In this document: positions 59,714 through 63,372 of the stretch, piece by piece
Layout: every line of letters begins with the position of its first letter
Numbering within the stretch: position 1 is the first letter of the stretch
Source: Eledone cirrhosa
Lineage: Eukaryota
DNA length: 64,000 bases
Assembly (NCBI GenBank): GCA_964016885.1
Contig: OZ024743.1
Span: 117,676,001 to 117,740,000, forward strand
Reading direction: 5' to 3'
Program-made: the position numbers and the translations under genes
The notes under the pieces: model-generated
Databases searched by the model: none
Told to the model about the DNA's origin: nothing
What the model saw: only the letters and a program-made list of their open reading frames with translations

Positions 59714-60975
59714 TAGAATAGGTGGAGTCGGAAGTGGGGTAGAAAAACAAACAAACCAAAACAACTGGCACAGAAGAAACTCACCAGCTGATTGTTAATA
59801 TTCAGCTCAGCGAGATAGAGCTATCGCTATGTAGAAGTCATTTGTCTGAATAAAATACCATACGTGCAAGACACTGGGAAGATTAATGACTCAGCATACC
59901 AAGTGTAATTATATTAGAAATTATGATACGCTAAGAACTCTAATTATTGATTAACAATATTGGAAAGGAAATACGTGTAATAACAATTCTTTTCGAGTTT
60001 TCTAAATAAAACATACATCTCCCACCGCTTCTCATTTCAGATAATCATCATCAACGTTATTCTCAACATTATAAGCTACATCACTAGCATAGATAGTACA
60101 GGGACATACTGTAAGAAAGCAATGTTTTTAGTACATTTCCTCTAATTAGTACATGTATTCGCGACATGGCGCCGACGACCTGTCACGTGTCACATTTACC
60201 TTAACGTGTCAAAATCCTGAATAGTTCTTATTCTAAGGAATCAGATTTCTTCTACTCTCACTCAATTTACTCTATCTATTTCCTCACATCTCTCTATTTT
60301 TCTCTCTCTCCCTTTTCCTCAATCCATTTTTCTGTCGGTGATTTCATGTGTGAGTGTAAGCGTATGTGTGAATATGTATATGTGTGTGTTTTGTGTTGGC
60401 TGTGAGAGTGAGATTGTGTTTGTGTCTGTCTATGCATGTATGTAAACACATATAAATACATATATATGTGTCATATGGAATTATTATCTCAGTATGTATA
60501 TATGTATGTGTGCATGTATGAGTATGTGTCCATGTGTTTATGTATGCATGCACGTATGTAAGTATATATGTATATATATATATATATATATATATATATA
60601 TATATATATATATATATATATATATATATATAAAATTTAAGTGAAAAAAAAATATATATATATATATATATATATGGAATAGAATGAAACGAAATTTCAT
60701 TTCTCACTATTAGTACGGCACTTACTTTAATGTAAGGATGTATGTATGTATACGTACATATATATATTATACAGACGTACAGCAGTATGTATATATATAC
60801 ATACTACTGTACGTCTGTATACATATATGTATGTACGTATAGATACATATATATATATATATATATATATATATATATATATATATATATATATATATAT
60901 ATATATATATGAAAGACGTAAAATAAGAAAATTTTTGAAAGAATTTAAAAAATTAACTCACTTACTAAAATTTTC

Positions 60976-61057
60976 ACTCCAACTAATTAGTTTCAGCAAT
61001 GGGATAAAGACAGTTAAGTAATATAACCGTCGAGAATTCATTGCGTCATCAGGGAGT
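60976..61057 (-). ncRNA. Type I hammerhead ribozyme motif, unit 1
   Basis: ACTCC-CTGATGA-[C GCAATG...CATTGC T]-GAAACTAATTAGTT-GGAGT. Confidence 0.75.
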
Positions 61058-61520
61058 CTATTCTCAGCTAAGTCTCCAGGCAATGCGCGGACACTGGGGA
61101 CTCGTATAAAAATAATAATAATTCGGTAGATGGAACAGCGAGCGGGGACTGGATTCCATGCACTGAAAAGCTTGCTGTCTCTGGTCAAATGGCAGATTCT
61201 AAAGAATCAATCACGTGACACTGAGGCTAGTCGGTAGGAGTGGGATGGTAAGATAACAGAAGCCTACTACCACACCAATAAATTAGTTGTGGTTTTGGCA
61301 GGTTTGCTCAACAAATAAATAATTTGGAGATAAATATAGAGAATTTAGTATATCTACTAACATATGCGTACAGATGTACGCTAATGCTAGCAAATACATA
61401 AGTTAAGTCATAGTACCTAGGTGGTTCAATGCAGGAGGATGCAGAACAATAATATGAAAGACGTAACATGAGAACATTTTTAAAAGAATTTAAAAAATTA
61501 ACTTACTTACTAACATTTTC

Positions 61521-61602
61521 ACTCCAACTAATTAGTTTCTGCAATGGGATAAATACAGTTACGTAATATAAACGTCGAGAATTCATTGCGTCATCAGGGA
61601 GT
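61521..61602 (-). ncRNA. Type I hammerhead ribozyme motif, unit 2
   Basis: Core and helices I/III intact. Confidence 0.75.
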
Positions 61603-62065
61603 CTATTCTCAGCTAAGTCTCCAGGCAATGCGCGGACACTGGTGACTCATATAAAAATAATAATAATTCGGTAGATGGAACAGCTCGCGGGGACTGGATT
61701 CCATGCACTGAAAAGCTCGCTGTCTCTGGTCAAATGGCAGATTCTAAAGAATTAATCACGTGACACTGAGGCTAGTCGGTAGGAGTGGGATGGTAAGATG
61801 ACAGAAGCCTACTACCACACCAATAAATTAGTAGTGGTTTTGGCAGGTTTTCTCAACAAATAAATAATTTGGAGATAAATATAGAGAATTTAGTATATCT
61901 ACTAACATATGCGTACAGATGTACGCTAATGCTAGCAAATACATAAGTTAAGTCATAGTACCTAGGTAGTTCAATGCAGGAGGATGCAGAACAATAATAT
62001 GAAAGACGTAAAATAAGAACATTTTAAAAAGAATTTAAAAAATGTACTTACTTACTAAAATTTTC

Positions 62066-62147
62066 ACTCCAACTAATTAGTTCCTGCAATGGGATAAAGG
62101 CAGTTACGTAATATAACCGTCGAGAATTCATTGCGTCATCAGGGAGT
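62066..62147 (-). ncRNA. Hammerhead motif, unit 3, core mutated (GGAA)
   Basis: A13G in GAAA. Confidence 0.6.
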
Positions 62148-62904
62148 CTATTCTCAGCTAAGTCTCCAGGCAATGCGCGGACACTGGGGACTCATATAAA
62201 AATAATAATAATTCGGTAGATGGAACAGCTAGCGGGGACTGGATTCCATGCACTGAAAAGCTCGCTGTCTCTGGTCAAATGGCAGATTCTAAAGAATCAA
62301 TCATGTGACACTGAGGCTAGTCGGTAGGAGTGGGATGGTAAGATGACAGAAGCCTACTACCACACCAATAAATTAGTAGTGGTTTTGGCAGGTTTGCTCA
62401 ACAAATAAATAATTTGGAGATAAATATAGAGAATTTAGTATATCTACTAACATATGCGTACAGATGTACGCTAATGCTAGCAAATACATAAGTTAAGTCA
62501 TAGTATCTAGGTGGTTCAATGCAGGAGGATGCAGAACAATAATATGAAAGACGTAAAATAAGAACATTTTAAAAAGAATTTAAAATATTAACTTACTTAC
62601 TAAAATAGATATACTAAATTCTCTATATTTATCTCCTAATTATTTATTTGTTGAGCAAACCTGCCAAAACCACTACTAATTTATTGGTGTGGTAGTAGGC
62701 TTCTGTCATCTTACCATCCCACTCCTACCGACTAGCCTCAGTGTCACGTGATTGATTCTTTAGAATCTGCCATTTGACCAGCGACAGCGAGCTTTTCAGT
62801 GCATGGAATCCAGTCCCCGCGAGCTGTTCCATCTACCGAATTATTATTATTTGTATATGAGTCCCCAGTGTCCACGCATTGCCTGGAGACTTAGCTGAGA
62901 ATAG

Positions 62905-62986
62905 ACTCCCTGATGACGCAATGAATTCTCGACGGTTACATTACGTAAATGTCTTTATCCCATTGCAGAAACTAATTAGTTACAGT
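62905..62986 (+). ncRNA. Hammerhead motif in inverted unit, helix I damaged
   Basis: Core intact, GGAGT changed to ACAGT. Confidence 0.6.
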
Positions 62987-63372
62987 GAAAATTTTAGTAA
63001 GTAAGTTAATTTTTTAAATTCTTTTTAAAATTTTCTTATTTTACGTCTTTCATATTATTGTTCTGCATCCTCCTGCATTGAACAACCTAGGTACTATGAA
63101 TTAACTTATGTATTTGCTAGCATTAGCGTACATCTGTACGCATATGTTATTAGATATACTAAATTCTCTCTCTCTCTCTCTTTCTCTCTCTCTCTCTCTC
63201 TCTCTCTCTATATATATATATATATATATATATATATATATATATATATATATATATATATATATATATATACATATATATATATATATAAATATATATA
63301 TGTATGTATCTATCTATACGTACATACATATAAGTATACATATATGTACTTGTCTATACCATACTAATTCAA

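Follow-up and report, generated by a model that had tools for sequence, protein, structure and literature searches.

A non-coding hammerhead retrozyme with a Penelope-type integration footprint in Eledone cirrhosa

Results

We analysed a window of 64,000 nucleotides of Eledone cirrhosa DNA (contig OZ024743.1, positions 117,676,001 to 117,740,000) and focus here on a repetitive element close to its right end, the parts of which are listed in Table 1. Unit positions are numbered from the predicted cut after GTT. The 545-bp units of the element are 95-97% identical, three of them being found on the minus strand and one in the inverted arm, which confirms the tandem and inverted repeat described in the original prediction as well as its position. 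The minus arm is composed of a partial unit (62606-62071), two complete units and 74 nt that terminate at 60907-60911 within (TA)n, and no unique middle that would separate the repeats was seen in the arms. The claim that the units lack recognisable coding content also holds, since the longest stop-free stretch measures 82 aa and the longest one starting from Met 53 aa. There is no ORF for reverse transcriptase (RT) plus GIY-YIG in the window element, and we therefore rejected an autonomous Penelope element as its identity. The GC content of the unit is 37.6%, below the limit of 45% that applies to retrozymes.

Table 1. Features of the element and its flanks in the window
Feature	Position	Strand
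Minus arm: +10 to +545 of one unit, followed by two full units of 545 bp and by +1 to +74 (proximal 3' end, P)	60907..62606	-
Inverted arm: +170..+545, then +1..+187 (distal 3' end, D); head-to-head with the minus arm at 62606	62606..63168	+
Hammerhead 1: core at 62142; GGAA for GAAA, likely inactive; predicted cut 62071/62070	62051..62163	-
Hammerhead 2: intact core at 61597; predicted cut 61526/61525	61506..61618	-
Hammerhead 2, candidate pseudoknot strands: GAGAA and TTCTC	61610-61606 and 61581-61577	-
Hammerhead 3: core at 61052 intact, with a private U ahead of GAAA; cut predicted at 60981/60980	60961..61073	-
Hammerhead 4: core at 62910; helix I 3' strand mutated, likely inactive	62889..63001	+
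Tail between the P and D ends (~113 nt), at one insertion end only; contains a long hairpin	63056..63168	+
(TC)22 run that separates the D end from the target; putative RT slippage product	63165..63209	+
Left flank: (TA)-rich target tract	60563..60910	n/a
Right flank: (TA)n target tract	63209..63345	n/a

Elsewhere in the window, positions 1-28454 are occupied by a tandem array whose 1259-bp units form a higher-order repeat of 3979 bp and each contain genes for tRNA-Phe and tRNA-Asn; the whole window has 46 tRNA calls. Positions 45750-54553 of the minus strand hold a LINE in two tandem copies that are 94% alike. Its frame at 45875-49300 (1141 aa) includes an RT and a C-terminal zinc-knuckle plus PD-type motif, with (TAA)n at the end, and we take it to be similar to R4/Dong. 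This LINE has no relation to the retrozyme element.

One hammerhead per unit had been predicted. A motif is indeed present in all four units, but the core and helix I are both intact in only two of them; in Hammerhead 4 helix I is lost through a change of GG to AC. Moreover, the base before GAAA, previously given as W, is A in the family, whereas the U at 61052 is private to that motif. The motif has the type I core (CUGAnGA, GAAA and UH), which is fully intact in 16/30 copies of the tail-motif sample described below, and three helices surround the core, with helix I open. Helix I starts with ACTCC/GGAGT and continues, beyond an internal loop, as ACTTAGCT/AGTAAGT. In helix II, which spans ~50 nt in all, an internal loop separates a 6-bp stem from a second one. 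The G10.1-C11.1 pair does not stack directly on the core but is set off from it by an extra C and an extra A. Such C/A flanking of the core and a GUU cleavage site are both expected to slow cleavage. Precedents are known for an extra 5' base (PMC4209133) and for U-U mismatches (PMC3088659, PMC7229834).

Helix III is the palindrome ACUAAUUAGU, with computed energies of +1.5 kcal/mol as a hairpin and -9.0 kcal/mol as a duplex. For a double hammerhead on two adjacent units the computation gave -160.1, compared to -157.6 for two single hammerheads and -162.1 for the unconstrained fold. The minimum-energy fold of the isolated motif has no active junction, and GAGAA is paired inside helix I. TTCTC, on the 5' side of the loop in helix II, is complementary to this same GAGAA, which lies on the 5' side of the loop in helix I. 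At least five Watson-Crick pairs between the two loop strands can be drawn in 44/57 unique motifs, compared to 12% of the shuffles and to 2/57 and 16/57 in two control windows. The paired sequences differ by family (GAGAA/TTCTC, GGAAAA/TTTTCC, GAGTTT/AAACTC and GAGCG/CGCTC), and GAGCG is accompanied by CGCTC in 332 cases and by WACTC in 4, which corresponds to one evolutionary event. Inside the retrozyme family a double change is seen at one pseudoknot pair, in 3 sequences and as a single event. The pseudoknot is missing from the minimum-energy fold, a method unable to model it. Judging from the complementarity, the internal loop of the two-part helix II can pair with the helix I loop as a Watson-Crick pseudoknot.

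In 36 sequences that span the subfamilies, pairing is found in 93.8% of cells, compared to 87.3% after shuffling, a test inflated by relatedness, and to 35-47% after sliding. Covariation in the same sequences is 0.220 versus 0.102, and double changes occur in helices I, IIa and IIb as well as in one pseudoknot pair. Helices I and II covary across subfamilies; helix III is uninformative in this respect because it is invariant. Since the rows of this alignment had been chosen by the core, using them to measure core conservation would be circular, and we therefore turned to copies picked independently of the ribozyme by a tail motif (4,419 genome matches; 50 loci, 59 segments, 30 of which span the ribozyme). 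Identity to the window copy amounts to 202/210 for CUGAUGA, 117/120 for GAAA, 267/270 for helix III and 150/150 for the loop TTCTC. Less conserved are helix IIb (494/690), the region +6..+74 (1628/2070) and the upstream region (2299/2731). In summary, the core, helix III and the loop TTCTC reach 96-100%, helix IIb 72% and the other parts 79-86%. The core exceeds most of the unit, and selection on the ribozyme core is supported by this pattern. An Rfam scan of the element returned no hammerhead match at E<=5, only microsatellite-driven miRNA noise.

We searched the genome (3.0 Gb, 1796 contigs) with the pattern CTGATGA-N46-70-GAAACTAATTAGT and obtained 9,061 exact matches, compared to 0 with the reversed control. 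The same core pattern with a spacer of 15-45 nt has 126 matches, again with 0 in the control. The hammerhead motif in the units is not due to chance. Among the matches listed, the closest full-length copies are 94-97% identical, and subfamilies extend down to 70-80% identity. The family is scattered over many contigs in short arrays, with arms of up to 2,579 nt in which units follow each other head-to-tail without an ORF in between. A pattern scan of metagenomes gave 0 matches, and four contig runs in which the repeat is also present are of unrecorded kind and uninformative on expression. A looser pattern with a GTA site has 12,731 genome matches compared to 1,618 in the control; many of them, not all, are sister families that have the same layout and different helix III palindromes. 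These sister families (L112 6665-7258, L130 1007-1144 and L193-L211) combine a long helix II and a predicted pseudoknot with GTA sites, and the one at L112 is a 459-bp tandem.

Two 3' ends recur among the copies, P at +74 and D at ~+190; both coincide with a short ATAT match, beyond which (TA)n follows. When ends of inverted, outward-facing insertions were called by strict motifs, 32/32 had one P and one D end. Strict calling missed some loci, including the one in the window. Alignment-based calling of 69 configurations yielded 51 with P+D, none with P+P, one with D+D and 17 that could not be classed, as an alignment broke off at another position, in most cases between +39 and +45. The lone D+D configuration consists of two separate P+D insertions. 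If ends were drawn independently from the 60 P and 79 D ends, about half of the pairs would be mixed. Two minimal inverted insertions without ribozyme (L272 1507-1795 and 2309-2597) each have one P and one D arm.

D ends differ in what lies between them and the target. Where the template is CTCTA, 5-19 TC units are found in 15/21 places, whereas more than one TC unit is found in 0/16 places in which it is CTTTA, and the flank opposite the D end is TC-free in 10/10. Two more places with other templates also have long TC runs, of 11 and 13 units. That the extra (TC)n occurs mainly on CTCT templates suggests that it is a product of slippage by the reverse transcriptase; the rival explanation is insertion exactly at pre-existing TA/TC borders.

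The 5' ends are variable. Only 4/199 lie at -1..+2 of the predicted cut, and the bin -12..+12 contains 28/199, compared to 12-19 in neighbouring bins, counts that are affected by sampling. The peak of 5' ends at +7/+8 falls on the palindromic AAAATTTT. All four window units, in both arms, share a T where 63/67 other contexts have CA and none has T; private variants common to the units are found in 4/11 multi-unit places. The common T fits repeated copying of one monomer template, as on a circle, and it also fits a uniform linear source or local homogenisation.

A genome search for GIY-YIG gave 10,594 candidates, from which 61 loci were sampled, taken from 150 among the matches listed. Twelve ORFs from GIY-YIG loci were scanned, and most carry RT plus GIY-YIG. 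From their cysteine linker we take most of these families to be Neptune. The cysteine-linker motif is described in PMC8557442. One autonomous Neptune family ends in (TA)n at +74-77 or ~+141 after its own small hammerhead-like motif; its ORF region begins just beyond the distal end, and an inverted locus of the family combines one proximal with one distal end. In the search for a link of the unit to Penelope RT/GIY-YIG ORFs, a pLTR homologous to the unit was found in 0 of the 61 GIY-YIG loci, a small sample. Moreover, tblastn with five Penelope proteins against 140 loci selected by hammerhead or BLAST recovered only unrelated neighbours, none of which extends the unit into an ORF. L119, which has an ORF and a downstream hammerhead, was rejected as parent, since the Neptune family there has its own pLTR. 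Among 30 3' ends of this Neptune family, the unit is found only at L136, at L140 and at L132, which coincides with L119, each time as a separate insertion, and L020, L067, L071, L083 and L131 proved to be chance neighbours. A young autonomous Neptune-type family (L111, L119, L132-L161) has copies that are 96-98% alike and a pLTR motif with the U3-A8 core variant UUGAAAA, and two other families have UUGAUAA or canonical cores.

Discussion

The testable features identify the element as a non-LTR retrozyme, a kind already known, that bears the integration footprint of Penelope. The retrozyme-like reading of the original prediction is supported by its being dispersed, non-coding and tandem, with a hammerhead per unit, covarying helices and a core under selection. 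That prediction did not include the pseudoknot, the (TA)n target, the fixed 3' ends P and D that delimit the Penelope tail, or the existence of sister families that fold alike. A tail, two RT start sites, an inverted truncated copy and a microsatellite target, as expected of a Penelope derivative, are all found.

Animal non-LTR retrozymes are defined in PMC7229834, which shows circles in mussel and presents Penelope as a strong candidate mover. A 2026 preprint (10.64898/2026.07.22.740005) reports pLTR homology in Xenopus, where 1/9 retrozyme dimers cleaved and 8/9 did not; its available text includes no mollusc. Our element resembles the animal retrozymes (coral, mussel and axolotl, PMC7229834; vertebrates, 10.64898/2026.07.22.740005) in being a non-coding tandem with one type I hammerhead per unit, thousands of copies and coexisting Penelope, and also in GC content. 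It differs by its two-part helix II with a predicted pseudoknot, its mapped integration ends, the fact that no homologous pLTR was found and a 545-bp unit, compared to ~170-400 nt in the tested cases. The unit is not atypically long, contrary to what had been thought, considering the 51-972 bp range in 10.64898/2026.07.22.740005.

Regarding Penelope itself, PMC11167929 defines the tail by two internal RT start sites, with strands that behaved alike in vitro, and PMC8557442 describes copies that are inverted and truncated, often with the tail at one end, and a microsatellite bias. The insertions of these elements (PMC8557442; anole Poseidon, PMC11167929) share with ours the partial tandems, the inverted 5'-truncated copy, the one-end tail, two internal RT starts downstream of the hammerhead and an AT-rich or microsatellite target. 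Unlike them, our element has no ORF, a tail of ~113 nt instead of 30-40, a counted one-P-one-D rule and template-dependent (TC)n. The minimal Penelope hammerheads of PMC4209133 likewise have an extra base between A9 and G10.1, a longer helix II and a palindromic helix III suited to dimers, whereas the additional A before GAAA, the internal loop and second stem of helix II and an extended helix I carrying a candidate pseudoknot strand distinguish ours. Pseudoknots occur in all hammerhead types (PMC3088659); the motifs reported there are mostly microbial with a short stem II, plus the human C10 motif, while in our repetitive animal elements the partner is an internal loop within the ~50-nt helix II. 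Our literature search, which also covered PMC6155905 and PMC6765202, recovered no description of the family, the fold or the slippage, and the word 'ribozyme' is absent from the main text of the Octopus repeat annotation (PMC13282606); supplements, Lunse et al. 2016, Repbase and Dfam could hold one. Three features appear to be undescribed: the architecture of the ribozyme, the strict rule of two different ends per inverted insertion, and the addition of (TC)n.

We consider it likely, with a probability of about 0.8, that a non-coding retrozyme of high copy number inserted once at this locus, that its RNA likely undergoes self-cleavage, and that an RT-endonuclease of Penelope-like type, probably Neptune, likely acted in trans to copy it into (TA)n. 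According to this model, tandem copies would be transcribed, and two motifs would pair via the palindromic helix III and cut after GUU, aided by the loop I-loop II pseudoknot, after which the cleaved monomer would be ligated into a circle. A Penelope protein would nick both (TA)n strands, and priming would take place at +74 from one nick and at ~+190 from the other, each by a short AUAU match. Both cDNAs would then travel round the template, stop variably and be joined head to head, and slippage on CUCU would add (TC)n at the distal end. Because a cleaved linear monomer gives a cDNA of only 74 or 190 nt, arms as long as those observed need a circle or an uncleaved multimer, and the 5' ends did not separate these two templates.

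It is in our view unlikely that the hammerhead fold has been retained as a signal for protein binding or folding and rarely cuts, with uncleaved linear multimers instead of circles serving as templates. The GUU site and the atypical C/A where helix II meets the core would fit such a role, as would 5' ends without a peak at +1, the in vitro insertion of the anole element without a need for cleavage (PMC11167929) and the deviant core UUGAAAA of the autonomous Neptune family in this genome. However, the catalytic bases, helix III and the pseudoknot are conserved across subfamilies that are 70-80% alike, and the window locus has private variants common to all units and both arms.

The head-to-tail units without intervening ORF, in arms of up to 2,579 nt, also make it very improbable that the unit is just the pLTR of an unsampled autonomous Penelope family, of which the copies would be 5'-truncated remains. 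Such a family would explain why the footprint is that of Penelope elements, and only 61 of >10,000 GIY-YIG candidates were examined; yet the autonomous families that were examined have unrelated pLTRs, and the tblastn survey with Penelope proteins found no unit continuing into an ORF. A satellite that carries a hammerhead incidentally and was amplified as DNA through unequal crossover would account for the tandem arrangement. This reading deserves next to no weight, being already contradicted by the fixed ends and the dispersed copies: the short arrays lie on many contigs, their 3' ends are fixed and their 5' ends variable, and they have inverted arms and covariation.

A wider version of the retrozyme reading can be offered tentatively, as one we hold to be possible and rather doubtful. 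An undescribed structural subclass of active animal hammerheads, with a long two-part helix II that the pseudoknot locks to helix I, might run several retrozyme families with up to ~20,000 motifs in this genome. Their circles might be copied by a Neptune protein dimer that primes obligatorily at P on one strand and at D on the other, adds dinucleotides by telomerase-like slippage and thereby seeds (TC)n microsatellites.

In the published accounts consulted, Penelope is the likely, unproven mover of animal retrozymes, and the mechanism is left open there. Here a retrozyme carries the Penelope footprint at base resolution, and its proximal spacing of +74 to +77 is common to an autonomous Neptune family of this genome, which makes trans-mobilisation testable on a defined target and from start sites on the RNA that are likewise defined. 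The strict P/D asymmetry constrains models of how the Penelope tail originated. Since the fold escapes Rfam, such elements are probably undercounted.

Finally, three hammerhead-bearing families occupy the same TA tracts in the window. A second, unrelated hammerhead element adjoins on the plus strand at 63345-63480 (core at 63378); it has a 10-bp helix II, an AT palindrome in helix III and 33 genome matches, and it ends in (TA)n. At 60675-60900 lies a fragment that is ~80% like the hammerhead-bearing tandem repeat of locus L121 (7757-8930).
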